In this document: positions 31,606 to 59,378 of the stretch, in pieces
Position numbering within the stretch: the first letter of the stretch is position 1
Layout: every line of letters starts with the position of its first letter
Origin: Acidobacteriaceae bacterium
GTDB lineage: Bacteria; Acidobacteriota; Terriglobia; Terriglobales; Acidobacteriaceae
Assembly (NCBI GenBank): GCA_035943695.1
Contig: DASZBW010000022.1
Span: forward strand, 4,102-68,101
DNA: 64,000 nt
Direction of reading: 5' to 3'
Translations under genes and position numbers: made by a program
Notes under the pieces: model-generated
The model's database searches: none
Seen by the model: only the letters and a program-made list of their open reading frames with translations
Told to the model about the DNA's origin: nothing

Positions 31606-32851
31606 TCTCCAGCGCCAACCCCAGCGCCGCCCGCCCATCCTCCACCGTCACCTCTGGCTCCCGCCGCGTCCGCACCGCCTCCAGAAAAGCCTCAATCTCC
31701 AGCCGCAGCGGCTCCCCCGCCTCCACCGCAACCTTCCGCATCTCCATCCCCCCCGAAGGATGTTCACCAACCCTCTGACCATCCGCTGTCGAACTCTTCC
31801 CCACCCCCAAAACTCCGGGTGCCCCATCCTTCGCAGCCTCATCGCGAAGGGTGGAGTCCAACATCTTCGCCGCGATCTTCCCCAAATCCGCTCCCGTCAC
31901 ATCGATCACCAACAAATCCTGCCGCGCAAAGTCCAGCGAAAGATACTGCCGCGGCTGAAAGAACCGCATCTTCCGTACCCGCTCCGTACTCACCCGGCTC
32001 GCAGTAAAGTTCGCCACACAGCCGTTCTCAAACTCCAGCCGCACATTCGCGATATCCACCTTATTCGACAACACCGGAAGCCCTACCGCCCGAACCTCCC
32101 GCACCGGCACACCTACCAGGTTCATCACAATATCCAGGTCATGGATCATCAAATCCAGCACCACATCGACATCCAGCGACCGCGGCGTAAACACGCTCAT
32201 CCGGTGCACCTCAAAGAACATCGGCTTGTTCAGCAGCCCACGCACCGCCCGCACCGCCGGGTTGAACCGCTCCAGATGCCCCACCTGCACCACGCGCCCT
32301 AGCTTCTGCGACAGCGCCACAATCTCATCCGCCTCAGCCAGCGTAGCCGCCAACGGCTTCTCGATCAGCACATCCACACCCGCCGCCATCAACTCCCGCG
32401 CACAAGCCAGATGATGCACCGTAGACACACAAACCGAAGCCGCCGAAATCCCCCTGAGGCCTCCTCTCTGTTTGTCATTCTGAGCGGAGCGAAGAACCCC
32501 CGCATCTCCTCCCACAGAGCCACCAACCCCGGGTGCCCCATCCTTAGCAGCCTCATCGCTAAGGGTGGGATCCACAAAGCCCGCATCACCTACTCCGGGT
32601 GCCCCATTCATGCGCGCATTTTGCGCATGAGTGGGATCGACAAATCCCGCACCCCCACCCTCCCCCATTAGACACTCAGCAACCGAAGCATACCCACGCA
32701 CCCCAAAGTCCGCCTCAGCCCGCCCTCGAGCCCCAGCATCGGGATCAATCACCGCCGCCAGCTCCACCGGATATCCCGCCACCTCCAGCTCGCGATAAAC
32801 CCGCAGATGGTTCCGCCCGAACGCCCCCGCGCCCACCACCACCACCCGCAT
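31562..32851 (-). CDS. Gfo/Idh/MocA oxidoreductase (possibly GnnA-like UDP-GlcNAc 3-dehydrogenase) with repeat-derived inserts
   Basis: MRVVVVGAGAFG, LIEKP, GHLERFNPA and DLMIHDLD motifs. Start reset to the ATG at 32851. Confidence 0.88.
   Translation of the reverse strand: MRVVVVGAGAFGRNHLRVYRELEVAGYPVELAAVIDPDAGARGRAEADFGVRGYASVAECLMGEGGGAGFVDPTHAQNARMNGAPGVGDAGFVDPTLSDEAAKDGAPGVGGSVGGDAGVLRSAQNDKQRGGLRGISAASVCVSTVHHLACARELMAAGVDVLIEKPLAATLAEADEIVALSQKLGRVVQVGHLERFNPAVRAVRGLLNKPMFFEVHRMSVFTPRSLDVDVVLDLMIHDLDIVMNLVGVPVREVRAVGLPVLSNKVDIANVRLEFENGCVANFTASRVSTERVRKMRFFQPRQYLSLDFARQDLLVIDVTGADLGKIAAKMLDSTLRDEAAKDGAPGVLGVGKSSTADGQRVGEHPSGGMEMRKVAVEAGEPLRLEIEAFLEAVRTRREPEVTVEDGRAALGLALEINAAIASHARRTGL
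31817..31855 (+). repeat. Palindromic element family A, inside the Gfo gene
   Basis: GGGTGCCCCAT-CCTTCGC-N9-GCGAAGG-GTGG. Confidence 0.9.
32473..32662 (+). repeat. Composite insert in the Gfo gene: one family B copy (32473-32505) and two family A copies (32531, 32597; 66-bp period)
   Basis: TGTCATTCTGAGCGGAGCGAAGAACCCCCGCAT is identical to 44339-44371; two GGGTGCCCCAT...GTGGGAT hairpins follow. Confidence 0.9.
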
Positions 32852-32883
32852 TACGGACTGTTCGCCATCCCGCAGTCCGCACT

Positions 32884-32933
32884 CCCCGGCGAGCGGTCCC
32901 GGCTCGCCGGGGTGAAGCGAAGCGGTGGAACCT
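32884..32933 (+). repeat. 11-bp-stem hairpin with a family-B-like tail (family D)
   Basis: CCCCGGCGAGC-N7-GCTCGCCGGGG followed by TGAAGCGAAGCGGTGGAACCT. Confidence 0.6.
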
Positions 32934-33000
32934 CTTTCTCCACCGCCCCCCACAGCTTCCTGTTCCTTGTACCTTACTCCCTGCTCCCTGCCCTCCGGCA

Positions 33001-33213
33001 CTACTTCACCGAACCCTCAACCGCCGACCTGCAACGCCCATACAGCTCCAGCAGCTCCGTAACCTGATCCTCTGCCTTCGCCGAAGCCGCCGCCCCAAAA
33101 CCCACGCCGCCGCTAGCCGCCTTCGCGCCCACATGCGCCTGCGCCGCCACAAACTTTAGCAGATCCAAAGCAATATCCTCAGTCCGCCGAGCTCCATTGT
33201 TCACTTCACTCAT
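33001..33213 (-). CDS. Small hypothetical protein
   Basis: 70 aa, helical ends with a Gly/Ala linker; ATG start; same strand as the downstream Gfo gene. Confidence 0.6.
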   Translation of the reverse strand: MSEVNNGARRTEDIALDLLKFVAAQAHVGAKAASGGVGFGAAASAKAEDQVTELLELYGRCRSAVEGSVK

Positions 33214-33403
33214 CGTCGATTCCCTCTCTCAATTTCCACCCCGATCTTAAAGTCCCACCCCACCCCAAAGCAAATCGCCAATCTGCCACAATGCCTCTCC
33301 ATCCGAATTCCACGCATTATCTCGGGGAACATTCCGTCCTGCATCTCCGTCTATATAGGAAGAACACAACAGCACCGCCGCAGGTTTGCCAGGAGATAAG
33401 ACC

Positions 33404-34630
33404 ATGCCCCGCACGATCTCCCACCCCACGCCACCTGCAAGTTCACTCGCCTCACTCTTCCTTCTACTCGCCGCTTTTTTCACCGCCGTCACACCATACG
33501 CGACAGCCCAGTTCGACGACATCACCCTCGCCACCATCGCCTCCACAGATCAAATACAGCAATGGCTCCGCAGCGGAGATCCCCGCCGAATCGCCTGGGG
33601 AGCCCACTTCGCCCGCGAACAAAACGACCAGCCCGCACTCGCACTCATAGCCCAGATGCTCACAGGCTGGAGAGCTCCGCAAGCATCGCAGGATCAAGCA
33701 TTGCCCAACCGCCCCACATTTGAGCAACAAGCCCCCACCGTTGCCATGCTCGATGCACTCATCCAACGCAACCGTGCGCTGCCGACGGATGCCATCGCAA
33801 CCCTTGCCCCGTTCTTCCCCGCGCAGGCAGCACTCCTCGCCAAAAATCTCTCTGCGACGGACGCAACGCCCCTGCTTCTGTCCTGGTACGCCCATCGCTC
33901 CAGCGACGACCGCGGCAGCCTTGCACACGTCGCAGCCATCATACTCAGCCACTCACCGCCCCCCGCCTTCGCCGCCACTGTCCTCGCCGAATCCGAGGAG
34001 ACGCTGTACATCTCCGTCTTCTCAAAACCCGACGGTCTCGGTTTCGGCTCGGGCGGGTCCTTCATCGGTTCTGGCGTACCCTTGCCACCCCCAGCCTGGC
34101 CACCAGTCTTCAACTATGTCCTCACCGAGGACTTTCAGCAAACACCGCAGACGAAGCCCGCGAAAGCGGACGAATGCCAACCGCCGGCTCCCCCGCCACC
34201 CCGAAGCTTAGATCCCATCTTCGCCGACGCCGCTGGCGATCACATTCGCTACCACCGCTACGACCTGCTGAAGTATCCCAGCGTATCCGGCGGCGTAAGT
34301 GCTCTCAACGACAAAAATCGCCACTACCTGTTAGCCCAGATGCTAGGAGTAACCGACGACCAGATTCCCTGGAATCCCACCACCTTCACCTCCATTGTCT
34401 GGCACAGCGACGGTCAATACCTTACCGAAGCCGCTGGCTTCGCAGCAGCCGAAGAAGCCAAACTCCGCGCCTCCGTCCAGGCCATCGAGTCACACGGCCT
34501 GCTCACGCCCGAAGAAGCCGCCTCCGTCCGCCCAAAACTCTCCATCACCATTCAAGACCTCCGCGAACCCAGCGGCCCACCGCTGCCACAACTGACCTTC
34601 GCGGATCTGCGTACTACCCTCTCCCATTGA
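33404..34630 (+). CDS. Secreted hypothetical protein
   Basis: Long ORF with the local codon bias and an N-terminal signal peptide (..PYATA-QF); no recognised family. Confidence 0.65.
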   Translation: MPRTISHPTPPASSLASLFLLLAAFFTAVTPYATAQFDDITLATIASTDQIQQWLRSGDPRRIAWGAHFAREQNDQPALALIAQMLTGWRAPQASQDQALPNRPTFEQQAPTVAMLDALIQRNRALPTDAIATLAPFFPAQAALLAKNLSATDATPLLLSWYAHRSSDDRGSLAHVAAIILSHSPPPAFAATVLAESEETLYISVFSKPDGLGFGSGGSFIGSGVPLPPPAWPPVFNYVLTEDFQQTPQTKPAKADECQPPAPPPPRSLDPIFADAAGDHIRYHRYDLLKYPSVSGGVSALNDKNRHYLLAQMLGVTDDQIPWNPTTFTSIVWHSDGQYLTEAAGFAAAEEAKLRASVQAIESHGLLTPEEAASVRPKLSITIQDLREPSGPPLPQLTFADLRTTLSH

Positions 34631-34655
34631 CCCACATCCGGCACGGAGCAAGCGT

Positions 34656-35843
34656 CTACTCGATCGATCCAGCCCGCACCCCGCACAAAATCTCATACGC
34701 AATTGTGCCCGCCAGCCGAGCATGATCCTCCGCCGTAACTCCATCCCCCAGCAGCACCACTTCGTCCCCCACCCGAACTCCCTCAATCCCCGTCACATCC
34801 ACCATCGTCAGATTCATCGACACCCGCCCCACAATCTCCGCCCTCCGCACCACCCCATCCGCACCCCGCACCCCTACCCACCCACCACCACGTTCATTCG
34901 TCGATGACAACTCCCGCCGCAGCCCATCCGCATACCCCACCCGCAGCAACGCCACCCGCATGGCGTGTTCCGCAGTAAACATAGCGTTATACCCAAACGT
35001 CTCCCCCGCCACCGCATCGCGCACATCGATCACCCGAGTCTTCCAAGTCATCACCGGCTCCAGTGCCCCCCGCACCCTGCCACGCACCTCACCACCAGCA
35101 ATCGGCAGACAATACCCATACAGCGCAATCCCACACCGCACCATAGCCCGCGCACCCACACTCTTCGCCAGCTCCACCAGCCACCCCGCCTCCGCACCCT
35201 CCGCCGCATTATCCACGCTGGAAGAACTCCCCGCATGAACCCACCCCAGCCTCAGCCCACGCCCCCGCACCTGCGCCACCGCCGCCTCAAACCTCTTCTC
35301 CTGCGCCCGCGTCAACTCCTGGTCCCCAACCTCCGCCGCCGCAAAGTGCGTCATCACCCCATCCACCTCAACCCCGCCAGCCTTCATCGCATCCAGCAAA
35401 TCATCCATCGCCGCGCCGGCACGAACCCCCTGCCGACCCATCCCCGTCTCAATCTCCACATGCACCCGCACACCGGACCCAGCCAGCCACCCCACCTGCT
35501 CCGCAGTCCACACCACCGGCGTCAACCCACACGCCACAATCTCCCCCACATCCTCCCGCAAAATCCCACACATCACCAAAATCCCCGGCCCACTCTCACA
35601 AACGCCCCCAGCCACATCGAGCGCCGCCCTCACCCGCGCTCCCTCATTCGCCGTCCCCACCCCCAGCCACTTCGCGCCAGCCCGCGCCAGCTCCACCGAG
35701 CACAACTCCAACCCATGCCCGTAAGCATTCGCCTTCACCACCGCAAGCACAGCAGTCTCGGCACCGGCAGCCTCGCTCACCACGCGATAGTTCTCCGCCA
35801 GCCTCTCCCGCGAAATCTCCATCCAGCTCGTCATTCGCTCCAC
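34656..35843 (-). CDS. alr: Alanine racemase
   Basis: AVVKANAYGHG (PLP lysine), HVEIETGMGRQG, MTHFA, GYADG, VGRVSM and IAYEILC motifs. Confidence 0.95.
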   Translation of the reverse strand: MERMTSWMEISRERLAENYRVVSEAAGAETAVLAVVKANAYGHGLELCSVELARAGAKWLGVGTANEGARVRAALDVAGGVCESGPGILVMCGILREDVGEIVACGLTPVVWTAEQVGWLAGSGVRVHVEIETGMGRQGVRAGAAMDDLLDAMKAGGVEVDGVMTHFAAAEVGDQELTRAQEKRFEAAVAQVRGRGLRLGWVHAGSSSSVDNAAEGAEAGWLVELAKSVGARAMVRCGIALYGYCLPIAGGEVRGRVRGALEPVMTWKTRVIDVRDAVAGETFGYNAMFTAEHAMRVALLRVGYADGLRRELSSTNERGGGWVGVRGADGVVRRAEIVGRVSMNLTMVDVTGIEGVRVGDEVVLLGDGVTAEDHARLAGTIAYEILCGVRAGSIE

Positions 35844-36527
35844 TCACACACCCGCAATATCCCCCGCCTCCAGCACCTGCTTCGCATACCCATGCTTCGC
35901 CACCGCAAGCATAGCCCTTCCCATCTGATCCGTCGTCGTCACATGCTTCGGAAACATCCGCAGCAACATCGGCAGCACCGGTCGCATCGCCGCATACATC
36001 CCTCGATACCAACCCGTCTTCGAAACAATCCCATCCCGCGGCACAATCATCCCCGGTCGAAACATATACGCCGCCTTGAACCCCATCGACAGCAGCCAAT
36101 CCTCCGTCTCACCCTTCACCCGCGCCCACATCGCTCGCCCATTCGAGTTCGTCCCCGCACCCGACACATACAAAAACGTCATCCCATCCCCGTACACCGA
36201 AGTCGGATTCACCCGCAGCAAAGTCCGCGCCGCCGACGTCGTCATCTCAAACGTCACCCGCCGATACTCCGCCTCCTTCATCTCCACCGCCGAAACCCCC
36301 ACGCAGAACAGGCATGCGTCATACCCCATCAACTCGCCCTCCACTCGCGAAAGATCCGCCAGGTCCGCCGCCACCACCTCACGCACCTTCTCACTCCTCC
36401 GTCCCAACCCCGGCGCCGTCGCCTTCCTCACCACCGACACCACAGCCGTCACCTCCCGGTCCAGCACACACTCCCGCAACACCCCTTGCCCCACCATCCC
36501 CGTAGCCCCAAACAAAATCACCTTCAA
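35844..36527 (-). CDS. NAD(P)-binding epimerase/dehydratase-like protein
   Basis: ILFGATGMVG, YVSGAG, WARVKGETE and FRPG motifs. Confidence 0.85.
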   Translation of the reverse strand: MKVILFGATGMVGQGVLRECVLDREVTAVVSVVRKATAPGLGRRSEKVREVVAADLADLSRVEGELMGYDACLFCVGVSAVEMKEAEYRRVTFEMTTSAARTLLRVNPTSVYGDGMTFLYVSGAGTNSNGRAMWARVKGETEDWLLSMGFKAAYMFRPGMIVPRDGIVSKTGWYRGMYAAMRPVLPMLLRMFPKHVTTTDQMGRAMLAVAKHGYAKQVLEAGDIAGV

Positions 36528-36557
36528 CGCAACCCGTCCTTCCGCCGCACAACTCCA

Positions 36558-36801
36558 GCTTCTAAGTGGTCAAAGCTTCAGAGCTTCCACGTAAGCCAGG
36601 GCTTCAGCCGTGACCTCCGCAGTAGCCCCCTTCAACGCAACATCTAAGCTCTCGCTTCTAGGTAAGCCAAGGCTTCAGCCGTGACCTGTACAGTAGCCCC
36701 TCCAACGCAACATCCAAGCTCTCGCTTCTAGGTAAGCCAAGGCTTCAGCCTTGGCCCTCTCCAGCCTACATACAACGGGGGCTTTAGCCCCTGGGGCATG
36801 C
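36558..36801 (+). repeat. About 70-bp tandem array ending in a complete family C element (36728-36801)
   Basis: Units start GTAAGCCA at 36591, 36662 and 36732, each followed by GGCTTCAGCC; the last continues to GGGGCTTTAGCCCCTGGGG. Confidence 0.85.
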
Positions 36802-36845
36802 TCTCTTCGCTGCGCCACATCAATCCAAATTCCCACACCACCAGC

Positions 36846-38228: not shown

Positions 38229-38334
38229 ACCCGATTATCCCCCTCGTCCACCCTGAGCAAAAAGAGCCGCCTTAGTGGGAAATCTCACCATTTCGCAGAA
38301 GTAGATCGCGAAGGTCCTGTGGGGTTCCCAGCCC

Positions 38335-38455
38335 GGTGCCCCATTCATGACAACATCATCGTCATGAGTGGGGTCCGCCGCGTCCGGGTGATAGCCGTCC
38401 GACAGCCGGATACCTGGGTGCCCCATTCATGACAGCACTATCGTCATGAGTGGGG
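38335..38455 (+). repeat. Two family A hairpins upstream of dnaB (38335-38373, 38416-38455)
   Basis: GGTGCCCCAT-TCATGAC-N9-GTCATGA-GTGGGG twice. Confidence 0.9.
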
Positions 38456-38569
38456 GTCTCCGTCGCCACGGTCATAACCTTCCGCCAGCTGATTACTCTG
38501 CACCACCCCCATTCAATGGCATAATGACTCAAACCCCAGGCGCACCAGCCCAACGGAGTCCACCCAACC

Positions 38570-43033: not shown

Positions 43034-43939
43034 ATGCCCGCACCCACCTCAGGCCGCGTCCGCATCGGCATCTCCGGCTGGAGCTACAAAGGCTGGCGCG
43101 GTACCTTCTACCCGCCCAAGCTCCCCCACAAAAAAGAACTAGCCCACGCCGCCACTCTCTTCCCCTCCGTCGAGATCAACGGCACCTTCTACTCCATGCA
43201 GCGCCCCTCCAGCTTCCTCAACTGGGTCGCAGAAACCCCACCCAACTTCGTCTTCGCCATCAAGGGCAGCCGCTACATCACCCACATGCTCAAGCTCCGC
43301 AACGTCGAGCAGGCCCTCGCCAACTTCTTCGCCTCCGGCCCCCTCGCCCTCGGCCCCAAACTAGGCCCCATCCTCTGGCAGTTCCCCCCGAACCTCGCCT
43401 TCAACCCGGAAAAATTCGAAGCCTTCTTCCACCTCCTCCCCACCACCACCGCCTCTGCCGCCGACCTAGCCCGCCGCCACGACGAGCGCCTCACCGGCCG
43501 TGCCTTCACCGAAGCAGGCCGCACCCGCCGCATCCGCCACGCCGTCGAGATCCGCCACGAATCCTTCCGCACCCCCGCCTTCATCCAACTCCTCCGCCGC
43601 TACAATATCGCCCTCGTCTGCGCCGACACTGTCGACTGGCCCCTCCTCATGGACGTCACCTCGGACTTCGTCTACTGCCGCCTCCACGGTGGCGAAGTCC
43701 TCTACACCAGCGGCTACTCCGACGCCGATCTCGACCTCTGGGCCACCCGCATAGCCGCCTGGGCCCGAGGCCAGGACTGCGACCGCACCCACGCCCTCAA
43801 CACCTTTGCCCACCCCACCCCATGCCGCCCCCGCCTCACTCGCGACGTATACGTCTACTTCGACAACGACGCCAAAGTCCACGCCCCCTACGACGCCCAA
43901 AACCTAATCACCCGCGTCAACACCCTCCTCGCACAGTAA
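43034..43939 (+). CDS. DUF72 (YecE-like) protein
   Basis: IGISGWSY, VEINGTFY, LWQFPP, EIRHESF, YCRLHG and YVYFDNDAK motifs. Confidence 0.9.
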   Translation: MPAPTSGRVRIGISGWSYKGWRGTFYPPKLPHKKELAHAATLFPSVEINGTFYSMQRPSSFLNWVAETPPNFVFAIKGSRYITHMLKLRNVEQALANFFASGPLALGPKLGPILWQFPPNLAFNPEKFEAFFHLLPTTTASAADLARRHDERLTGRAFTEAGRTRRIRHAVEIRHESFRTPAFIQLLRRYNIALVCADTVDWPLLMDVTSDFVYCRLHGGEVLYTSGYSDADLDLWATRIAAWARGQDCDRTHALNTFAHPTPCRPRLTRDVYVYFDNDAKVHAPYDAQNLITRVNTLLAQ

Positions 43940-43959: not shown

Positions 43960-43999
43960 GGTGCCCCATTCATGACAGTCTCACCGTCATGAATGGGGC
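43960..43999 (+). repeat. Family A hairpin between the convergent DUF72 and mnmG genes
   Basis: GCCCCATTCATGAC-N9-GTCATGAATGGGGC (14-bp perfect stem). Confidence 0.9.
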
Positions 44000-44021
44000 C
44001 TACCTCCGCAGCCAGCCCCCG

Positions 44022-46535
44022 TTACGCGGTCTTCCGCCGCCCCTGAATCTCAATAAAACAATTCACCAGGCTCACCGCCGCCGGCGTCACTCCCTGAATC
44101 CGCCCAGCCTGCCCCAGCGTTCTCGGCCGCACCCGCCCCAGCGTCTCCACCATCTCCCTGCTCAACCCCGAACAAGCCGCATAATCGAACCCAACCGGAA
44201 TCACCCTTTCCTCATCCCGCTTCAGCTTCGCCATCGTCTTCTTCTGCTGCTCCAGATACCCCGCATACTTGATCTCCGTCTCCACCGTCTTCATCTCATT
44301 CCGAACCCACGCCGGAAGTCTCCCACTGGCGACGGACGTGTCATTCTGAGCGGAGCGAAGAACCCCCGCATTTTCTCCGGCCACCCAAACACCCCCTCCG
44401 CTCATCCAAACTCCCAATTCCTCCACCCCACCCACCACCTCATGCAAGACCGGCCACAACCCCTCCACCATAACCTCCGGCCTCTTCAAAACCTGCGCCC
44501 AGGTCTGCCCCTTCATCTCCGAAACATCCCCGCGCAAAGCCCCCCCCAACATCTCCACCAAAGCCTCAGCCCGCTCCCCCACCCGCATCTCCAACACCCG
44601 CGCAAACGCCTCCGCCCGAGCCATCTTCGCCTCATGCGCCGCCCACGCAACATCATCAATCAGCCCCAGCCGCCGCCCATACACCGTCAGCCGACGATCC
44701 GCATTATCAATCCTCAAATGCAGCCGAAACTCCGCCCGCGAAGTAAACATCCGGTAAGGCTCATTCGTCCCCTTCGAGATCAAATCATCAATCAAAATCC
44801 CCGTATACCCCTCCGTCCGATCCAGCGTAAACCCTGCAAACTCCCCCCACCCCAAAACTCCGGGTGCCCCATCCATCGCAGCCTCACCGCGATGGGTGGG
44901 ATGTAAGACCTCCGCTTCCCCCACCAAAGCCTTTGCCCATAAGGCAGCATTAATTCCCGCCATCAACCCCTGGCAAGCCGCCTCTTCATACCCACTCGTC
45001 CCATTGATCTGCCCCGCCAGAAACAGCCCGGCAAACTTCTTCACTCCCAGCGTCCTATCCAGCTCCGTCGGGTCAATAGCGTCATACTCGATCGCATACC
45101 CCGGCCGCAACATCTCTGCATTCTCCAGCCCAGGTATCGACCGCACCATCGCCACCTGCACCTCCATCGGCAGGCTGGTCGACATGCCATTCACATAAAC
45201 CTCATGCGTATTCAGCCCCTCCGGCTCCAGAAAAAACTGGTGCTGCGTCTTCTCCGGAAACCGCACGATCTTGTCCTCAATCGAAGGACAATACCGCGGC
45301 CCCGTCGCATGAATCTGCCCCGTATACATCGGCGACCGGTGCGCATTCTCCCGGATCAGCCGCATCGTCTCCGGCGACGTCGTAGCAATATAGCAACTCA
45401 CCTGCCGCAACTCCGGCACCCAGCTCCCACCCCCGCATCCCGCCGTAGAAGAGAGAACGGGCCAGGCCGAGCGTAGCGGAGAAGGTATCGCCTCTAGGTA
45501 CCCCAAGGCTTCAGCCTTGGGTCTCTCTGCCACGGCCGAAGAACAAGAGGCTTTAGCCTCTGGGGTATGCCCTCCGTCCGCCGCGCCGACAGCCTCATTC
45601 TGAGCGAAGCCGCGTGCCCCATCCATCGCAGTCTCATCGCGATGGGTGGGATGCAAATCTCCCCGTGCCCAATTCCTGCCAGTCCTATCGTCATGAGTGG
45701 GCGCCAACCCCGTTCCCCGCTTCAACCCCGCCCGAAAACTAAACGGAGTAGGATCCACATCCCCAGGCTGCTCCTCAAACCTCGTCCAATCAATCGTCCG
45801 CCCATCCAGCCGCGGCGGAGTCCCTGTCTTCAACCTGCACTCCCGCAGCCCCAGCCGCTTCAGCGCCTCCCCCAGCAACACGCTCGCCGGCTCCCCACTC
45901 CGCCCCGCCGCGTACTGCTGCTCCCCACAATGAATCAACCCATTCAAAAACGTCCCCGTAGTCACCACCGTAGCCCGCGCATAAACTACCCGCCCATCCC
46001 GCAGCCGCACGCCCACCACCCGCCGCTGCCTGTGCTCCTGGGCAAAGCTCCCACCCACAACATTGTCATCCTCAGCAGCGCCAGTAAAAACATTGTCATC
46101 CTGAGCGGAGCGCAGCGCAGTCGAAGGACCTGCGGTTCCTTCCTCCACCACCACATCCACCACCTCAGCTTGCTTAATAAACAAGCCCTTCTGCCCCTCC
46201 AGCACCTCCCGCATCTTCACCCGGTAAAGCGCCTTATCGCACTGCGCCCTCGGCGACCAAACAGCCGGCCCCCGCGAAGTATTCAGCAGCCGAAACTGGA
46301 TCCCACAAGCATCCGCCACTTCACCCATCACTCCACCCAGCGCATCCACCTCCCGCACCAGGTGTCCCTTAGCGATCCCGCCAATCGCCGGATTACAACT
46401 CATCTGCGCAATCAAATCCAGATTCAGCGTAAACAACGCCGTCCGCAGCCCCATCCGCGCCGCCGCCATAGCCGCCTCGCACCCCGCATGACCCGCCCCC
46501 ACCACCACCACATCAAACTCTTCCGTAAATCCCAT
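44022..46535 (-). CDS. mnmG: tRNA uridine-34 carboxymethylaminomethyl modification enzyme MnmG (GidA) with four repeat-derived in-frame inserts
   Basis: [58 protein letters not shown] and [12 protein letters not shown] all intact; 837 aa. Confidence 0.96.
44339..44371 (+). repeat. Family B element inside mnmG
   Basis: 33/33 identical to 32473-32505; read as [10 protein letters not shown] in both genes. Confidence 0.9.
44862..44902 (+). repeat. Family A element inside mnmG
   Basis: GGGTGCCCCAT-CCATCGC-N9-GCGATGG-GTGGGAT. Confidence 0.9.
45420..45715 (+). repeat. Composite insert in mnmG: family C (45494-45570), B fragment (45596-45610), family A (45614-45652) and degenerate A (45665-45701)
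   Basis: Direct similarity to the intergenic copies at 36728, 46635 and 38416. Boundaries approximate. Confidence 0.85.
46059..46137 (+). repeat. Family B element with an abortive upstream copy, inside mnmG
   Basis: AACATTGTCATCCTCAGC, then AACATTGTCATCCTGAGCGGAGCGCAGCGCAGTCGAAGGACCTGCGGTT; the tail is shared with 48163-48212. Confidence 0.85.
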
Positions 46536-46570
46536 CCCCCAATTCTACGTTTTTCCACCCATCACCCCCA

Positions 46571-46744
46571 CTATCATCCTGCCATTCTGCCCCCGTACTA
46601 TCACCGTGCCATTCTGAGCCGCCTAGTATCACCGTGTCATTCTGAGCGAAGCGAAGAACCCCCGCATTTCGCCTTTGCTCTGCTTTACCTTTGCCTCAGC
46701 CTTTGCCCGTTCCTGCTGTCATCCTGAACGCAGCGAAGTATCCC
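46571..46744 (+). repeat. Intergenic family B copies (46635-46667, 46717-46744) preceded by two degenerate junction copies
   Basis: CTATCATCCTGCCATTCTG / CTATCACCGTGCCATTCTGAGC / GTATCACCGTGTCATTCTGAGCGAAGCGAAGAACCCCCGCAT. Confidence 0.8.
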
Positions 46745-47235
46745 GATACGTCCGCCCAACCTCAACCTCCCGAACCTTTCTCCCACAGCCCACCGTCCCC
46801 CGACGACCTGTCAGCCTCAACTAAAAGCTGTCAGCGGATCGATAAACCTGCCGCCCTCCCGCCGAAAACCTGTCAACCCCCACCCACCCACATCGTGGAT
46901 ACAACCCATTCAAATACAGTAACTTAAGCCAAACCACCGCATGGCGAGCAGTTACGGTCAATCTCGTATAATAGAACTAGATGAAAAAAGCGAGGCGCCA
47001 TCAGCCTAAACGGCGCTTCAAAAACAGTGGTTCAATGACAACACTGGTGTGGCTATCTGTATACACCGATCACTAAATATTTACATTGCAGTAACTTAGA
47101 GATATATAGGGGGGGGAGGGGGAGTATGGTAAACAAGCCACAACAGAACATCCAGCCAGCCTTACCCAGCCGCCGACCCCTCGCGCCGTCCAGGAAGAAC
47201 CCGGCCTCCAGGATCACATCCTCCGCAGGCCTCCC

Positions 47236-48060
47236 ATGACGAACTACTTCAACTATTTCACCGAGATTGAAGACCGCTTCCAGCAGCGCCGAGGCTCCCT
47301 CCTCATGCTCTCCACCCTCGACTGGGCCCTCATCGAGACCTGGCGCGAAGCCCAGGTCCCCCTTGAAGCCGTCCTCCGAGGCATCGACACTGCCTTCGAT
47401 AAACACGACGCCCAGCTCGCCCGCGCCGGAGCCCGTCGCCCCCGCAAAGTCAACGGCCTCGCCTGGTGCGCCCAGGCCGTCCTCGAAGCCGTCGAGCAAT
47501 CCCGCGAAGCCGCCATCGGCACCGCACCCACCACCACCGAATCCCGCGACTCCGGCTTCGAAGCCGCCCGCATCGCCGCCTACCTCAACCGCAACGCCAC
47601 CCAACTCGAGGCTGCCGCAAACCACGCACCAGCAGCAGCTCAGACCGCCGCCCGCCTTCGCACCCTAGCAACGCAACTCCAAGCCGCCCCCGAACCCGAC
47701 TCGTCCTCCCCCGCGCCCCTGTTATCATCCCGCAGCGAAGCGGAGGGATCTGCTTCTCCATCCGCAACCACTCGCGAGCCCCTCGGCCTCGAAGATGGAG
47801 CCATCAGCCTGGAGATGTTAGACCGCACCCTCACCGTCCTCGAAGAAAAGCTCTACACCTCCCTCCTAGCCTCCGCCCCCGAAGATCAGCTGGTAGCCCT
47901 CCGCGCCCAGGCCGACCGCGAACTCGCCCCCTACCGCGGCAAGATGCAAGCCGTCCAGATCAAGCAGGTCCAGCAACAGCTCCTGCAAAAGCGCCTCCTC
48001 GAAGCCCACAAACTCCCCCGCCTCAGCCTCTTCTACATGCCTCACGAAGAGGAGGCCTGA
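47236..48060 (+). CDS. Hypothetical protein with a possible DnaD/DnaB_2-like N-terminal domain
   Basis: Strong codon bias. F..RRG...LS.LD..LIE.W....P.E.VLRGI..AF pattern; domain call is inference. Confidence 0.65.
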   Translation: MTNYFNYFTEIEDRFQQRRGSLLMLSTLDWALIETWREAQVPLEAVLRGIDTAFDKHDAQLARAGARRPRKVNGLAWCAQAVLEAVEQSREAAIGTAPTTTESRDSGFEAARIAAYLNRNATQLEAAANHAPAAAQTAARLRTLATQLQAAPEPDSSSPAPLLSSRSEAEGSASPSATTREPLGLEDGAISLEMLDRTLTVLEEKLYTSLLASAPEDQLVALRAQADRELAPYRGKMQAVQIKQVQQQLLQKRLLEAHKLPRLSLFYMPHEEEA

Positions 48061-48091: not shown

Positions 48092-48212
48092 AAGTTGATA
48101 GATATTCAAGATTATGAAGTTGATAGATATTGGAGGTTACGAAGCAGATAGAGATTGAAGATTGTCATCCTGAGCGAAGGCGCAAAGCGCCGTAGTCGAA
48201 GGACCTGCGGTT
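48092..48212 (+). repeat. 25-bp x3 AT-rich tandem array abutting a family B element
   Basis: AAGTTGATAGATATT at 48092 and 48117, degenerate third unit at 48142, then TGTCATCCTGAGCGAAGG...AGTCGAAGGACCTGCGGTT. Confidence 0.8.
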
Positions 48213-49566: not shown

Positions 49567-49596
49567 TTGAATCGGTGACGAAGGGCGGGCAGCCTG

Positions 49597-52733: not shown

Positions 52734-52779
52734 CGCGATGCGGCAGGTAGAATGGCACGGATGAGCGACGCAGCGATAT

Positions 52780-54060: not shown

Positions 54061-54251
54061 ATTCGTATCCCAGTCACAACCCATCCATCGCATCCATCCA
54101 TGCGGACAAGTCTGCGCAATCCGTTTCAACATCTGCACATTTTTGCGGTCTAGACCGCAGCAACATGGCTGGTTATACTCTGGCAATCACCGGGCCCCAG
54201 CTAACTGCATCGCCTGTCGCTGTGCAGTGTCCAAACATCATCGGAGCCTCC

Positions 54252-55358
54252 ATGCGCATCTTCAAACTTTGTAAATTGATTCCCGTTGCCCTCGTCCTCG
54301 CAACGACCTCCTCCGCCTTCGCCGACTACACCTACCAGGAGACCACGCAGATCACCGGCGGCTCGATCGTCAGCATGATGAAGCTGGCCGGAACATTCAG
54401 CTCCCAGGCACGCAAAGCGGGCGACCCCGTAGTCTCGACCCTGTACCTCAAGGGCAATCGCCTCGCCCGCGTCTCCGCCGACAGCATGGAGATCATCGAT
54501 CTCGACAAGCAGAACGTCACCCATGTCGACATGGTGAAAAAGACGTATACCGTCATCACCTTTCAGCAGATGAAGGACCAGGTAGCGAAGGCGCGCCAGC
54601 AGATGCAGCAAACCACCGCGCAGCCATCCACCGCACCGGCCACCAATAACAATGTTCAGATGAGCTTCGACGTAAAAGTCCGCGAGACCGGAGCCAGCAA
54701 GCAGGTCAGCGGCCTCGACGCGAAAGAGGCCATCATGAACATGACCATGAACGCCACCGACAAGACCACACAGCAGACCGGCGCCATGGCCGTCACCAAC
54801 GACCTCTGGCTGGTGCCCGAGATTCCCGGATACAAACAGATCGGCGAATTCTACGCACGCATGGGCAAGGAGATGGGTTCCATCACCGCAGGCGTAGGCC
54901 TCGACCTCAGCAAAATGCTGGCGCAGAATCCCGGAGCTTCGCAGGCGCTGACCGACATGGGCAAGGAGATGCAGAAGATCAAAGGCGTGCCCGTCCTGCA
55001 AATCATGCGCATGGGAACGACGATCAACGGCCAGCCTCTCCCCGCGGCATCCGAGGCCCCGCTCCCACCCGACAATACGCCAGCCATGCCCAGCGGCAGC
55101 GACATCGCAAAGCAGTCCGCCGCCTCTGCAATCACCAGTCGCCTCGGCTCATTCGGAGGCTTCGGCGGCTTCGGCCACAAGAAGCAACCGCCCCCACCAC
55201 CCGCAGACCCAACTCCAGCGACAGCGGCCACCCCCACCAGCGCGATCCTCATGGAATCGCAAACCACCATCTCCAGCTTCTCCTCAGCCGCCGTCGACGC
55301 ATCGCACCTCGAAGTGCCATCGGGCTTCAAACAGGTCCAGGCGGAGGGGACGCGCTAG
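54252..55358 (+). CDS. Secreted hypothetical protein (DUF4412-like)
   Basis: Signal peptide ..TSSAFA-DY; ends VDASHLEVPSGFKQV. Start reset to the ATG at 54252. Confidence 0.7.
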   Translation: MRIFKLCKLIPVALVLATTSSAFADYTYQETTQITGGSIVSMMKLAGTFSSQARKAGDPVVSTLYLKGNRLARVSADSMEIIDLDKQNVTHVDMVKKTYTVITFQQMKDQVAKARQQMQQTTAQPSTAPATNNNVQMSFDVKVRETGASKQVSGLDAKEAIMNMTMNATDKTTQQTGAMAVTNDLWLVPEIPGYKQIGEFYARMGKEMGSITAGVGLDLSKMLAQNPGASQALTDMGKEMQKIKGVPVLQIMRMGTTINGQPLPAASEAPLPPDNTPAMPSGSDIAKQSAASAITSRLGSFGGFGGFGHKKQPPPPPADPTPATAATPTSAILMESQTTISSFSSAAVDASHLEVPSGFKQVQAEGTR

Positions 55359-55452
55359 CTGGCCCGTCGCCCTACCGAACGGCACAAAATACGCTCCACT
55401 AGGGCATACGGTCACCCGCTTGTCGGACATGCGACAATCTTTGTAGCGACCT

Positions 55453-57837
55453 ATGCCCATACCAGCTGAAAATTCATCCACGACCGCGGCACCTGAGGCT
55501 CCGGTTGCGGTCCCCGCGCCAGCGCAGATCACCCCGGCTCTGCTAAAAACGCACAGCATCACACCCGACGAGTACGCCCGCATCGAAAAGCTGATGGGCC
55601 GCACCCCCAGCCTCACCGAGCTGGGCATCTTCTCCGTCATGTGGTCTGAGCACTGCTCCTACAAGTCCAGCCGCGTCCATCTCAAGCGCCTGCCCACCAA
55701 AGGCACACGCACCTCCGGCCCCGGCTCCGTAGTCCAGGGCCCCGGCGAGAACGCCGGCATCATCGACGTAGGCGACGGCTGGGCCTGCGCCTTCAAGATC
55801 GAATCGCATAACCACCCCAGCTACATCGAGCCGTACCAAGGCGCAGCCACAGGCGTCGGCGGCATCCTGCGCGACATCTTCACCATGAACGCCCGCCCCT
55901 TCGCCGTCATGGACTCCCTCCGCTTCGGCCCACTCGATGAAGCCGAACCCGACGAAACTCTCCGCCGCAAAAATCACGCCGTAGTCAACGGCGTAGTAGG
56001 CGGCATCGCGGGCTACGGCAACTGCTTCGGCGTCCCCAACCTCGGCGGCGAGACGCGCTTCGAGCCCTGCTACAGCGGCAACCCTCTGGTCAACGCCTTC
56101 GCCCTCGGCCTCGTCCGCACCGACGAGATCTTCTACGCCAAGGCCACCGGCGTCGGCAACCCCGTCCTCTACGTCGGCGCCAAGACCGGCCGCGACGGCA
56201 TCCACGGCGCAACCATGGCCTCCGAAGAGTTCACCGAAGGCTCCGAGCAGAAGCGCCCTAACGTACAGATGGGCGATCCCTTCATGGAGAAGCTTCTCCT
56301 CGAAGCCTGCCTAGAAGCCATGACCACCGGCGCAGTCCTCGGCATTCAGGACATGGGCGCCGCCGGCCTCACCTGCTCCACCTGCGAGATGGGCGCACGC
56401 GGCGAACTAGGCGTCTCCATTGAGCTCGACCGCGTCCCGCAGCGCGAGACCGGCATGACCAGCTACGAGATCATGCTCTCGGAATCGCAGGAACGCATGC
56501 TCCTCGTCGCCGACAAAGGCCGCGAACACGAAGTCCTTGCCGTCTTCGCCAAGTGGGGCCTCGACGCCTCCATCGTAGGCATCGTCACCGCCGACGACGT
56601 AATGCGTGTCACCCACCACGGCGAACTCGTAGCCGAGATCCCCAACAAAGCCCTCACCGACGACGCACCGGTCTACAACCGCCCTGTCGGCACCTGGAAG
56701 TCCCCCTTCCCACTCGATCCACCTGCCTCCGTCCTCGAAGCACTCAAGCAACCACGCGACTACACCGCCGACCTCAAAAAGCTCCTCGCCTCCGCCAATA
56801 TCTGCGACAAACGCTGGGTCTTCGAGCAGTACGACTCCATGGTCCAAACCAACACCGTCCAGGGCCCCGGCAGCGAAGCCGGCGTCATGCGCATCAAGAA
56901 CAATGACGGCCAGCCCCAGCGCGGCATCGCCATGGCCCTCGCCGGCAACGGCCGCTGGTGTTATCTCGACCCCAAACTCGGTGCCATGCACGCCGTAGCC
57001 GAAGCCGCCCGCAAGGTAGCCTGTACCGGCGCCACCCCCGTGTCGGCCACCAACTGCCTCAACTTCGGCAACCCCGAAAAACCCGAGATCATGGCGCAGC
57101 TCTCCTCAGCCATCGACGGCATCGCCGAAGCCTGTACCGCACTCGGCACCCCCGTCACCGGCGGCAACGTCAGCCTCTACAACGAGACTAAAGGCGAAGG
57201 CATCTATCCCACCCCGGTCATCGGAATAGTGGGCCTGCTCGACGACGTATCCAAAGCCGTGCCCAGCGGCTTCCAATCCATCGGCGCAAAGGTCCTGCTG
57301 CTCCAATCCACCGCAGGAACCCCAGCCGCACTGGACCAGGAGTTGGGCAGCTCCGACTTCGCCCGCACCAATCTCAATGAGTTTTGGGGCACACCTCCAT
57401 GGATCGACCTCGAAGCAGCCGCAGCCATGAACAAGGCCCTCGCCGCACTCGCCCAGCGCGGCCTCATTCGCTCAGCCGAAGACATCTCCGACGGCGGCCT
57501 CGCAGTAGCTCTGGCCCGCTCCACCTTCGTTAAAAACATCGGCGTCAAAGCCACCCTCGGCGCACTCTCCGAAGCTGAATACACCTCCGCACTCTTCGCC
57601 GAGAACGCCACAGAAGTCCTGGTCACCTGCGACTTCGAAGATTACGGCCACATCTGCACCCTCCTCGATGAGATGGGCGACCACATCTGGCCCCTCGACC
57701 TCGGCGAAACCATCCCCGACCAGGTCCAGATCTTCGCCGGCAGCATCCCCTTGATCGAAGCACCCATCACCGACCTCCGCCACCCCTGGTCCCACACCCT
57801 CGAATCGCAGCTAGCAGCGGAGGTCGTCACCGCATGA
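55453..57837 (+). CDS. purL: Phosphoribosylformylglycinamidine synthase subunit PurL (small type)
   Basis: [38 protein letters not shown] and DISDGG motifs. Confidence 0.97.
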
Positions 57838-59378
57838 TGGACATTGAAAACACCAAAGCGGTTATCGACACGGTGAATCCTGCTCCCTGTTCCCTGCTCA
57901 CTGTTCCCTCAGCCGTTGACGACGACGACGACTCCACCCCTTTCGACAAACTCCGCGAAGAGTGCGGCGTCATGGCCGTCTACGGCCACCCCGACGCCGC
58001 CCGCCTCACCTATTGGGGCCTCTACGCCCTGCAGCATCGCGGCCAGGAGTCAGGCGGCATCGCCTCCGCCGACGGCACCGACGTCAACGACATCAAGGGC
58101 ATGGGCCTCGTCTCCGAGATCTTCACCGACGACGTCCTCGCCCGCCTCCCCGGCCACATCGCCATCGGCCACACCCGCTACTCCACCACCGGCGACTCCG
58201 CCCTGCTCAACGCGCAGCCCATCTCCGTCGAGTCCACCAAGGGCCTCATCGCCATCGCCCACAACGGGAACCTCGTCAACCTCGGCAACTCCAGGGCACG
58301 CCTCGAGCGCGACGGCGCGCTCTTTCAGACGACCTCCGACTCCGAGATCATCGTCCAGCTCATCGCGCACTCCAAGTGCTCTATGCTGGTCGACTGCATC
58401 GCCGAATCGCTCGCCCAGGTCGAAGGCGCCTTCTCCATCGTCATGATGACGCGCAACCGCATCTTCGCCGCCCGCGATCCTCACGGCTTCCGCCCACTCT
58501 CCATGGGCCGCATCCCCGGTGTCGACGGCGCACCCGACACCTTCGTCTTCGCCTCCGAGACCTGCGCCTTCGATCTCCTCCACGCCAAGTACGAGCGCGA
58601 CGTAGAACCCGGCGAACTCGTCATGGTCTCCGAAGACGGCGTCACCAGCCGTCGCTACTCACCCCAGACCACCCCAAACGCCAGCTGCATCTTCGAGCAC
58701 GTATACTTCGCCCGCCCCGACTCCCGCATCTACGGCCGCTGGGTCCAGCAGTCCCGCGAAGAGATGGGCCGCCAGTTGGCCCGCGAGTCCGGCATCTCCG
58801 CCGACCTCGTCGTCCCCGTCCCCGACTCCGGCGTCACCGCCGCCATCGGCTACGCCGCAGAGAGCGGCATCCCCTTCAACCTCGGCCTCATCCGCAACCA
58901 CTACGTCGGCCGCACCTTTATCCAGCCAGAGCAGCGAGTCCGCGACTTCGGCGTCCGCATGAAGCTCAACCCCGTCCGCAGCCTGCTCGAAGGCAAGCGC
59001 GTCATCCTCATCGACGACTCCATCATCCGCGGGACTACATCCAGAAAAATCGTCCGCATGGTAAGAGCCGCAGGCGCAACCGAAGTCCACATGCGCATCA
59101 CCTGTCCACCCACCATCTCACCCTGCTTCTACGGCGTCGACACACCCAGCAAAAAAGACCTCATCGCCGCCAACAACACCGTCGAGCAGATCCGCGATTT
59201 TATCGAAGCCGACTCACTTGCCTATCTCTCCCTAGTCGGTCTCACGCATTCCTGCACCACCGGTGAGCCTGCAAACGGCCTGTCCCCCGCCAGCTTCTGC
59301 ACTGCCTGCTACACCGGCAACTATCCCACACAATGGGTCGACGTCGAAGAGATTCTGCCCGCGACAGTAGGCGCTTAG
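57834..59378 (+). CDS. purF: Amidophosphoribosyltransferase
   Basis: EECG (Ntn Cys), QHRGQE, GHTRYST, AHNG, VPDSG and [11 protein letters not shown] motifs. Confidence 0.97.

Follow-up and report, generated by a model that had tools for sequence, protein, structure and literature searches.

Strand-locked, REP-like elements of an Acidobacteriaceae genome and their probable spread as single-stranded DNA

The closest described counterparts of the elements reported here belong to the REP/RAYT system (TnpA_REP) of Enterobacteria, Pseudomonas and Stenotrophomonas, in which REPs, BIMEs, REPINs and REPtrons are distinguished and in which, by convention, the active strand of a REP is the one that carries the 5' tail. 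REPs are occasionally found inside genes (PMC3733652). Y1 transposases act on single-stranded DNA; with IS608 and ISDra2, the lagging-strand template is both the source of excision and the target of insertion (PMC3333891, PMC6006769). The acidobacterial enzymes were classed as TIR-associated 'TIRYTs' by Di Nocera et al., with an abundant associated repeat family for one Koribacter gene only.

In the current study, a 64-kb stretch of Acidobacteriaceae DNA (hereafter the window) was analysed together with related loci. Judged by their sequence, its repeats are REP-type elements of several families, of a kind present in soil Acidobacteria, and their strand-locked orientation is real and extends far beyond the window. 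The reading that we favour, with a probability of roughly 60%, is that REP elements are spread by RAYT enzymes as single-stranded DNA at replication, hence the strand lock.

Anatomy and arrangement of the elements in the window

Family A is an imperfect palindrome of approximately 43 nt, with a stem of 12–14 bp that includes a conserved T.G wobble, a loop of 5–9 nt, a conserved 5' tail, (C)GGGTG, and sharp borders at −4 and +38. If REPs are defined as imperfect palindromes of 20–45 nt in which a conserved tail precedes the foot of the hairpin on its 5' side, family A fits this description. As single-stranded DNA it has a predicted fold of −10 to −17 kcal/mol, while the stem pairs 9/31, 11/29, 13/27, 14/26 and 15/25 are 91–99% Watson-Crick with two to three pair types each; when the partner is shifted by one, this falls to 1–34% for four of the five pairs and to 66% for 9/31. 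Single-strand folding and compensatory stem pairs together indicate that the hairpin is real. Its predicted stability is nearly equal on both strands, differing by at most about 3 kcal/mol in either direction. Beyond the hairpin no conserved flanks and no target motif were found, no event of transposition was seen, and the one filled/empty pair inspected displayed no target duplication.

Family B is a compact unit of approximately 36 nt that starts with TTGTCATTCTGAGCG, for which we found neither a convincing hairpin nor a linked enzyme, while family C is a two-hairpin module. No Rfam family matches the elements. Two copies in the window have a common 22-nt 5' extension. The features of the window are as follows.

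31562..33001, − strand: GFO/IDH/MocA oxidoreductase host gene, 479 aa
31818..31863, + strand: family A copy, in frame in the GFO/IDH/MocA gene (−), encoding ...STLRDEAAKDGAPGV...
32473..32512, + strand: family B copy in the GFO/IDH/MocA gene, immediately 5' to an A copy
32532..32577, + strand: family A copy in the GFO/IDH/MocA gene
32598..32643, + strand: family A copy in the GFO/IDH/MocA gene, direct tandem with 32532
36583..36809, + strand: family C 70-nt tandem array of 2.8 units, hairpin CCAAGGCTTCAGCCTTGG plus C2 module GGGGCTTTAGCCCCTGGGGCATGC, intergenic
38335..38380, + strand: family A copy, intergenic, between divergent dnaB and TonB-like genes
38417..38462, + strand: family A copy, intergenic, direct tandem with 38335
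43960..44005, + strand: intergenic family A copy between mnmG and a convergent DUF72 gene; its stem is perfect and lacks the T.G wobble
44022..46535, − strand: mnmG/gidA host gene, 837 aa, four in-frame insert blocks
44339..44378, + strand: family B copy in mnmG, encoding ...GVLRSAQND...
44863..44908, + strand: family A copy in mnmG, encoding a 15-residue segment
45463..45577, + strand: family C and C2 modules in mnmG, coding
45613..45658, + strand: family A copy in mnmG, with a B fragment (45595–45620) before it
45664..45709, + strand: family A copy in mnmG, degenerate and no longer a hairpin
46059..46133, + strand: family B fragment (46059–46080) and B copy (46089–46133) in mnmG
46565..46756, + strand: 28-nt tandem of truncated B heads (46565–46647), then B copies 46635–46674 and 46717–46756, intergenic
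47720..47759, + strand: B2-type copy TGTTATCATCCCGCAGCGAAGCGGAGGGATCTGC, assigned by sequence, inside the + strand ORF 47236–48060 and in the same reading direction
48158..48212, + strand: intergenic family B copy that contains an additional internal hairpin GGCGCAAAGCGCC, upstream of a trmA-like gene
57879..57909, + strand: 4.4-unit array of heptamers (CCTGCTC/CCTGTTC) within the N-terminal extension of purF (+ gene); few relatives found

The first-pass annotation had stated that all repeats of the window share one orientation, and this was confirmed. Searches with nhmmer profiles placed nine of nine family A copies and seven or eight of eight family B copies on the + strand (a fragment at 45595 is the uncertain eighth), the only minus-strand family A matches in the window being weak self-palindrome echoes; family C is likewise on + in four of four cases (the 70-nt tandem at 36583–36777 and the copy at 45463–45522). 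Self-BLAST of the window returned 17 repeat pairs, 17 direct and none inverted, 15 of them within 31–48 kb. The + reading is found, as had also been described, in − strand genes (GFO/IDH/MocA and mnmG), in + strand genes (ORF 47236–48060 and purF) and in intergenic spacers. Concerning the claim that copies occur only in the C-rich part, the A, B and C copies are confined to 31.8–48.2 kb and do sit in a C-rich stretch of the + strand; this stretch begins at approximately 16 kb, however, and not at 31 kb, and its 16–31 kb portion is without copies, from which it follows that C-richness alone is no predictor of copies. The same annotation had assigned most genes between 31 and 47 kb to the − strand, which was not borne out as about half lie on each, and no counterpart of its family D was identified in the window.

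Six of the nine A copies and four of the eight B copies of the window are in-frame parts of mnmG or the GFO oxidoreductase gene. MnmG is interrupted by four in-frame insert blocks (residues 133–170, 270–375, 534–567 and 694–747) and measures 837 aa versus the usual length of about 630 aa, with lengths of 672 to 902 aa across relatives; the GFO/IDH/MocA protein has 479 aa versus 343 aa in the syntenic ortholog of locus L242, which is without both insert blocks. Pairs of MnmG that are 97–98% identical in the core have unlike inserts, and one hairpin element was found inserted within the loop of an A copy, both of which indicate that turnover is fast. Since the elements are short and contain hardly any stop codons, copies landing in permissive protein surface loops would be kept in frame, and they may accumulate at such loops, as in mnmG and the GFO oxidoreductase gene, and even nest in each other's loops.

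Orientation relative to GC skew in relatives

A scan of genome contigs provided an external sample of at least 120 Acidobacteriaceae loci with family A, derived from many genomes with several loci per genome. Family A is on the C-rich strand in 106 of the 120 external loci listed, and all 14 exceptions have an absolute skew below 0.07. The first-pass annotation had proposed that orientation be plotted against GC skew, random orientation, or one set by gene strand only, being the results that would speak against its view; in the nearest version of this comparison, made on the external loci, orientation flips with the sign of local skew. At an absolute GC skew of at least 0.10 (58 loci among the matches listed), 34 loci carry + copies at negative skew, 24 carry − copies at positive skew and none is discordant in either direction (34/0/0/24; p = 8e-17), which is not a random pattern.

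All 86 family A copies in the high-skew loci listed are on the C-rich strand, and 26 of these 86 are genic: 16 lie in genes of the same strand and 10 in genes of the opposite strand, the remaining 60 being intergenic. Pfam-confirmed host genes on the C-rich strand in relatives encode TsaD, OPT and RsmE. As the copies occur in genes of either strand or between genes, gene direction does not explain the lock, and the transcription-linked alternative once offered for it is contradicted by the same skew polarity of all 26 genic copies.

Further samples behave in the same manner. The complete chromosome OZ243923.1, sampled twice, is opposite in both orientation and skew at 80 kb and at 3.48 Mb. In loci selected by family B, and thus independently ascertained, GGTGCCCCA heads favour the C-rich strand by 22:1, while other head variants in A-selected loci do so by 37:1, family B by 57:4 (high-skew metagenome contigs) and family C by 20:0. 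In the low-skew relatives L241–L243, B2-type elements occur in both orientations, as do family B and one weakly matching A copy in L241. Between 20 and 59 kb, genes of either direction have a + strand GC3 skew of −0.3 to −0.9, and AT skew is positive; the skew is therefore strand-wide and not transcriptional. The GGGTGCCCC head is conserved across many genera.

RAYT genes and the origin of the strand lock

The 64-kb window contains no RAYT gene, and the link to these enzymes accordingly rests on relatives. Employing Acidobacteria Y1 transposase sequences (PMC3733652, supplement 5) as queries, matches were obtained in four A-selected loci. Three of them have an A or A-like copy approximately 55–125 nt upstream of the RAYT gene on the same strand, the match in L018 being weak. 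Locus L081 has an intact RAYT gene with family C modules on both sides, the same modules as in the window array at 36583..36809. In Terriglobus saanensis (L244) the RAYT gene is bracketed by GGGGTGCCCCATGTCCGGATTTTCGGACATGGG and its inverse, and two Terracidiphilus-like RAYT genes have tandem GGGTGCCCC hairpins 60–150 nt upstream. RAYT genes flanked by the GGGTGCCCC head were seen in L244 (inverted pair), L245, L246, L080, L023 and, weakly, L018. These RAYT proteins pass the NCBIfam model NF047646 (REP-associated tyrosine transposase) at 90–105 bits, the cutoff being 80, as well as Pfam Y1_Tnp (PF01797). The gene neighbourhood, in which same-head hairpins flank NF047646 genes in relatives, thus backs the earlier suggestion of RAYT involvement, and would suggest that RAYT moves these elements.

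The single-stranded, replication-coupled spread that had been proposed is supported by an orientation that tracks the sign of skew and not the gene strand, together with the RAYT neighbours in relatives. The elements would be non-autonomous and most likely copied by single-copy RAYT-class HUH (Y1) tyrosine transposases, which would recognise the folded hairpin in single-stranded DNA. Because the replication fork would offer such DNA asymmetrically, copies would end up, or would only persist, in one polarity relative to fork movement. Taking the G-rich strand as the leading strand by general rule, by the excess of A over T on the C-rich strand and by the direction of mnmG and dnaB, the C-rich strand is probably the lagging strand, and the 5'-GGGTG-hairpin reading would always be on this C- and A-rich strand, which in the window is the + strand from approximately 16 kb. 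We infer that the lock arises at insertion. Under this strand assignment the 5'-tail reading on the C-rich strand corresponds to the leading-strand template; should the active strand be the one with this reading, the polarity may run counter to that of IS608. Either the REP convention is not transferable to these elements, or the lock reflects loss and not insertion.

It is possible, though distinctly less probable than the reading we favour, that the lock is made after insertion: elements would insert either way, and copies whose recognisable strand is on the exposed lagging-strand template would then be removed by RAYT-mediated precise excision or hairpin-stimulated deletion, so that only the protected orientation accumulates. 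An analogous argument of orientation-dependent loss has been made for the attC sites of chromosomal integrons. The position of the 5'-tail reading on the presumed leading-strand template, which is exposed least as single-stranded DNA, agrees with such loss, as does the quick turnover of inserts between near-identical MnmG genes, which implies that loss is frequent, and the lagging-strand template favours IS608 excision as well (PMC3333891). However, passive hairpin deletion would not distinguish orientations given the near-equal stability on both strands, neither excision footprints nor empty-site polymorphisms of opposite polarity were seen, and a lock that is near absolute (86/86 among the matches listed) would demand very efficient purging.

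The near-absolute polarity versus skew in three unrelated families, and the conservation of the GGGTGCCCC head, would also suit polar signals selected by the host, such as KOPS, Chi or sites for replication or repair proteins, whose function needs one orientation to the fork. This is improbable, as copy content is unlike between genomes 97–98% identical in MnmG, copies decay (45664) and form uneven clusters with none in 16–31 kb, no KOPS or Chi consensus match was recognised by eye, and copies flank RAYT genes as selfish REPs do.

It is more doubtful still that orientation follows transcription, the elements serving as terminators or mRNA stabilisers (RNA hairpins) that take their direction from the host gene or an adjacent one. 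Most genic copies of the window lie in − strand genes, and in RNA read from the + strand a G.U pair would take the place of the T.G wobble; against this, the window copies keep one orientation whether they lie in genes of one strand or the other or in spacers between divergent or convergent genes, the high-skew loci listed hold 16 co-oriented and 10 opposite copies of a single skew polarity, and Rfam offers no matching family. Chance or local segmental duplication in one 16-kb cluster, to which the clustering in 31.8–48.2 kb, the direct tandems (32532/32598, 38335/38417 and 45613/45664) and the shared 22-nt extension might point, is refuted by the 58 of 58 independent high-skew loci listed, from dozens of genomes, that obey the rule, and by the independently ascertained heads, for which it also holds.

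Comparison with known systems

With KOPS and Chi the elements share a strong strand skew relative to replication, seen here via GC skew; those short motifs, bound by FtsK or RecBCD, are evenly spaced along the genome, whereas the copies described here are clustered and variable between close relatives. MITEs carry the terminal inverted repeats of DDE-type IS elements and a target-site duplication; here no conserved flanks were found beyond the hairpin, and no duplication is visible at the single filled/empty pair inspected. Integron attC sites offer a possible analogy in the strand-specific recognition of a folded single strand via stem imperfections, and their orientation relative to replication matters for activity, but they are recombined by the tyrosine recombinase IntI in one array and are neither dispersed nor inside genes.

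Rickettsia palindromic elements (RPEs), of about 100–150 bp, are likewise palindromic in-frame inserts in housekeeping genes that add peptides at permissive sites and vary between close relatives; the elements described here are set apart by host phylum and size, and to our knowledge RPEs have neither a transposase nor a reported replichore polarity.

The IS200/IS605 family (IS608, ISDra2) and its gene-less PATEs would be analogous in HUH Y1 chemistry on single-stranded DNA hairpins, are alike in having no terminal inverted repeats, and would be alike in an orientation dictated by replication direction, here locked to skew. They have unlike subterminal hairpins at the left and right ends, with or without tnpA/tnpB between them, and differ in that our elements consist of one hairpin of approximately 43 nt with no internal transposase gene and no distinct left and right ends. 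The strand with the 5'-tail reading is here probably the leading-strand template, which would reverse the rule that applies to IS608.

Concerning REP/RAYT, the tail is GGGTG and not GTAG or CGTC as in known REPs, and copies are singlets or direct tandems and not the inverted doublets that make up REPINs and BIMEs (the window self-BLAST gave no inverted pair, and no external locus listed has exact A-pattern matches on both strands). Most window copies are intragenic and in frame, unlike the extragenic location of REPs, and the near-absolute polarity versus GC skew has no reported equivalent in the REP literature compared. The elements nevertheless resemble REPs in being short, imperfect palindromes whose stems contain mismatches and whose 5' tail is conserved, in their high copy number with several families per genome (nine A copies in 64 kb here), and in a single-copy Y1/HUH gene flanked by its own REPs, seen here in relatives and as an inverted pair in T. 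saanensis.

Repeat copies and strand asymmetry in the window

Profile searches of both strands of the window placed the main repeat families on the + strand in every case. The repeats concerned are as follows.

Repeat families and arrays in the window
Family A (~43-nt hairpin with a 5' GGGTG tail): nine copies, all on the + strand
Family B (~36 nt): seven or eight copies, all on the + strand
Family C (two-hairpin module): a 70-nt tandem array and one dispersed copy, all on the + strand
47720-47759: B2-type unit (a variant of family B), inside a + strand ORF
57879-57909: heptamer array, in the N-terminal extension of purF

When the whole window was compared with itself by short-word BLAST, 17 direct and 0 inverted repeat pairs were recovered, 15 of the 17 lying inside 31-48 kb. 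Together, these searches bear out the observation of the first-pass annotation that a single orientation is kept across - strand genes, + strand genes and spacers. Its further statement that copies are confined to the C-rich part of the window needs a correction: the C-rich zone starts at 16 kb and the 16-31 kb segment is therefore C-rich yet free of copies. Gene calls placed about half of the genes at 31-47 kb on each strand, contrary to the assertion that most are on the - strand, and no repeats corresponding to the family D reported there were identified in the window. A B-like match on the - strand at 85-129 (E = 1.2) is weak and on inspection looks like chance.

Several local arrays accompany these copies. 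The heptamer family comprises only three arrays in all sequence searched; in the purF N-terminal extension (57834-57960) the heptamer array is joined by a (GAC)5 run encoding DDDDD, before the conserved catalytic start. A 28-nt tandem of three units at 46565-46647 is made of truncated family B heads (GTGCCATTCTGAG), which suggests that partial family B units were amplified locally. Upstream of a trmA-like gene, a 25-nt AT-rich tandem at 48092-48163 (AAGTTGATAGATATTGAAGATTACG, 2.9 units) directly adjoins a family B copy on its 5' side.

The window has a G+C content of ~60% and its nearest relatives are soil and peat Acidobacteriaceae such as Granulicella, Terracidiphilus and Edaphobacter. Its + strand is near neutral over roughly the first 16 kb and shows a strong C excess over the remainder (GC skew -0.15 to -0.45), with a positive AT skew. 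For most genes at 20-59 kb the + strand GC3 skew lies between -0.3 and -0.9, and since such values are common to - strand genes (alr, dnaB, mnmG, relA/spoT) and + strand genes (comEC, purL, purF) the asymmetry is a property of the whole strand and not of transcription. In bacteria, G and T are usually enriched on the leading strand; applying this rule to the skew of the window, we infer that the + strand is the lagging strand here, which agrees with the direction of mnmG and dnaB. The direction of rpoBC, gyrA and parAB was also tried for fixing the leading strand and gave too few matches within high-skew loci.

A DnaA-box scan found no cluster in the window (7 one-mismatch matches against 6.5 expected) and there is therefore no origin inside it, in keeping with the unbroken skew; the AT-rich spacer beside mnmG is accordingly unsupported as oriC. 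Within this spacer (46760-47235), which separates mnmG from the next gene, the motif CTGTCA(G/A)C occurs three times and the repeat GCAGTAACTTA twice; it also contains the run GGGGGGGGAGGGGGAG and a TATAAT-like box with a small hairpin after it. Given the lack of a DnaA-box cluster, a regulatory role or a small-RNA gene is probable.

The asymmetry changes abruptly between 1-16000 and 16000-64000. At 1-13 kb the GC3 skew of the + strand is about 0 to +0.13 and the genes are ordinary housekeeping ones (rpe, surA-like, bamD, lolE-like, rluD-like, egtD/egtB). An origin or a simple inversion does not account for the change near 16 kb; recombinational import from a relative of low skew is a possibility. 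Within the skewed region, a tandem pair of Acyl_transf_3 paralogs (22743-23933 and 24112-25275) has a low G+C (0.50) and is almost unskewed. Behind each paralog comes one copy of a 44-nt repeat (23980-24023 and 25285-25328, 95% identical), and the segment 22743-25332 seems to have been acquired or duplicated recently. DUF72 is represented by two paralogs, at 14341-15150 in the unskewed part and at 43034-43939 in the skewed part. A phosphoesterase gene has at its 3' end a 20-nt tandem repeat (61633-61680; 2.4 units of TCGCCGTCACCGTTCCTTAA at 96% match) that overlaps its last codons.

Orientation relative to skew and gene strand in other genomes

Scanning one genome per species with the family A pattern returned at least 120 loci of up to 8 kb each, most of them 8 kb. 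Family A was found on the C-rich strand in 106 of the 120 loci listed, and all 14 exceptions have |skew| < 0.07. Orientation flips with the sign of the local skew in loci of |skew| >= 0.10: among those listed, 34 carry the element on the + strand with negative skew, 24 on the - strand with positive skew and none is discordant (p = 8e-17), so that random orientation was not seen in these 58 loci. The same high-skew loci hold 86 copies, of which 60 are intergenic, 16 are in same-strand genes and 10 in opposite-strand genes; polarity relative to skew is identical in all 86, and orientation following gene strand, the alternative raised by the first-pass annotation, was likewise not seen among the genic copies. 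Genes were called by strand-specific codon models, which recovered all Pfam-confirmed genes of the window; a codon-usage caller trained on mixed genes was discarded, having mis-called - strand genes owing to the strand skew. Host genes on the C-rich strand were verified for TsaD, an OPT transporter and RsmE, in which the element is read, for example, as GAPS...

The other families behave similarly. Preference for the C-rich strand is 57:4 for family B in high-skew metagenome contigs, 20:0 for family C modules and 37:1 for other head variants in the loci selected on family A. Heads of the GGTGCCCCA type, scored in loci selected on family B and thereby removing the circularity of selecting on family A, gave 22:1. 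On the complete chromosome OZ243923.1 the element lies on the - strand at 80 kb (skew +0.25) and on the + strand at 3.48 Mb (skew -0.27). In three low-skew relatives (L241-L243) B2-type elements occur in both orientations, as do family B and one weakly matching family A copy in L241; the strand lock is demonstrable only where skew is strong.

Element anatomy and in-frame inserts

An information profile of 138 copies revealed sharp family A borders at -4 and +38, a conserved (C)GGGTG tail, an outer stem CCCCATYC/GRGTGGG and a variable inner stem; the outer stem of these copies, including its T.G wobble, is fixed by the search pattern that collected them, and the wobble is present in 8 of the 9 family A copies of the window, whose detection did not depend on that pattern. 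Each of the five inner stem pairs is Watson-Crick in 91-99% of 116 distinct sequences and uses two or three pair types; when the partner is shifted, four of the five drop to 1-34% and pair 9/31 to 66%. As single-stranded DNA, family A folds into hairpins of 12-14 bp (-10 to -17 kcal/mol). Judged on these sequence features, its anatomy is that of a REP; it differs from an IS end and probably from a MITE. The family C module comprises two hairpins, and family B is a compact unit of ~36 nt with sharp borders and a hairpin that is weak at best. Rfam holds no family matching any repeat, either for the whole window at the gathering threshold or for 31.5-48.4 kb at E <= 1. An exact 27-nt family B core occurs in metagenome contigs of 28% to 68% G+C, a spread that places family B well outside Acidobacteriaceae, and in some of these contigs the core forms inverted pairs with long hairpins; family B may be part of a much wider element family.

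The mnmG ORF of the window encodes 837 aa and, aligned to solved MnmG structures, falls into five blocks separated by four inserts.

Inserts in the MnmG of the window
Residues 133-170, 270-375, 534-567 and 694-747: match exactly the A, B and C copies

Among 120 acidobacterial homologues MnmG varies from 672 to 902 aa, and the four sites are hypervariable (0-150 aa each) and hold peptides derived from families A, B and C. Insert gain and loss must be fast, as pairs 97-98% identical in the conserved core have unlike insert content. Depending on frame, 64-99% of family A copies are without stop codons, which accounts for the tolerance of in-frame copies. A GFO/IDH/MocA oxidoreductase of 479 aa in the window has a syntenic ortholog of 343 aa in the low-skew relative L242; the two share 71% identity across the main part of the alignment, and the ortholog is without both insert blocks. 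The mnmG genes of L242 (1798-3939) and L243 (601-2736) share 89% DNA identity, and one of them has a 39-nt hairpin element (CCCCAACGAGCAAAGATCGCTCGCTGGGG) within the loop of a family A copy; a DNA-level search of the loci for nested A copies yielded tandem pairs only, nesting being seen in this comparison. The B2-type elements of these two genes occupy unlike hot spots and are oppositely oriented; GC skew is almost nil in both genomes. An exact-protein look-up of the window MnmG and DnaB matched no record, and the locus is present in no RNA-seq run. The repeat elements lengthen and diversify housekeeping proteins, are a source of recurrent 'junk' peptides in Acidobacteria proteomes and can mislead gene callers, codon models already failing on genomes this skewed.

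RAYT transposases and the proposed route of spread

RAYT-like Y1 transposases were described by Di Nocera et al. in Terriglobus, Granulicella, Acidobacterium and Koribacter (PMC3733652), and the acidobacterial Y1 sequences of that supplement served as tblastn queries. Homologues were found in four of the 120 listed loci selected on family A. Three of these loci (L080, L023, L018) hold truncated genes, each preceded at ~55-125 nt by a same-strand copy that is of family A or similar to it, the match in L018 being weak. In the fourth (L081, 2700-3480) the RAYT is intact (NF047646, 90.5 bits) and lies between direct copies of the C2 module and of the family C modules that also occur in the window, whereas an inverted REP pair is usually described for REPtrons. 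The T. saanensis RAYT, bracketed by GGGGTGCCCCATGTCCGGATTTTCGGACATGGG and its exact inverse, is such a classical REPtron, and tandemly arranged hairpins with a GGGTGCCCC head lie shortly upstream of two Terracidiphilus-like RAYT genes. Each of these proteins passes the NCBIfam model NF047646, 'REP-associated tyrosine transposase' (90-105 bits, cutoff 80), and Pfam Y1_Tnp. No RAYT gene was found in the 64-kb window by tblastn with the published acidobacterial RAYTs or by an HUH/Y motif regex, the latter being too strict, as it missed RAYTs of the loci that tblastn found.

Repeat polarity ignores genes and follows the inferred replication strand. A weaker hairpin on the exposed strand is ruled out as its cause, the folding energies of the two strands being nearly equal (a difference of ~3 kcal/mol at most, in either direction). 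Since Y1/HUH transposases act on single-stranded hairpins, and IS608 and ISDra2 are excised from and inserted into the lagging-strand template (PMC3333891, PMC6006769), a replication-coupled ssDNA route would be the most economical explanation. The lock would be compatible both with biased insertion and with orientation-dependent loss after unbiased arrival. In E. coli REPs the active strand carries the 5' tail; were this so here, the active strand would lie on the leading-strand template, the reverse of IS608, which would favour loss or another substrate. Such reversed polarity would point to action on the leading-strand template or nascent lagging-strand DNA.

Our most far-reaching reading, to which we give slightly less than an even chance (about 0.45), is that the REP singlets of Acidobacteriaceae are mobilised by RAYTs and undergo strand-specific insertion at the replication fork, producing a near-absolute replichore polarity, perhaps the reverse of that of IS608, and that the same elements routinely enter coding sequence in frame. 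Since RAYTs were discovered, the way in which REPs spread has been a standing question: cleavage of REP ssDNA by the E. coli enzyme is known in vitro, while movement in vivo and coupling to replication are undemonstrated (PMC3333891). REP singlets have a definable orientation, which inverted doublets do not, and a strict lock is therefore a natural experiment. If true, the proposed insertion at the fork would provide the first genome-scale in vivo signature of replication-coupled REP/RAYT spread, until now hypothesised only from E. coli biochemistry, and routine in-frame colonisation would generate hypervariable peptide inserts in housekeeping proteins. The lock spans dozens of genomes and predicts a flip at the origin and terminus as well as a strand preference of the RAYT; the elements could also mark replication direction in fragmented metagenome bins, and the findings are relevant to research on ssDNA transposition and genome architecture.

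Already on record are REPs and RAYTs, the occurrence of REPs within genes, and palindromic elements inserted in frame (RPE). The REP/RAYT literature consulted (PMC3333891, PMC3116915, PMC3733652, PMC6006769, PMC8266576) describes neither a superfamily of singlet or direct-tandem REPs with near-absolute replication-strand polarity nor colonisation of coding sequence to this degree. The nearest hint is provided by the tandem REP arrays of P. fluorescens SBW25, which are forward at ~2 Mb and reverse at ~4 Mb.
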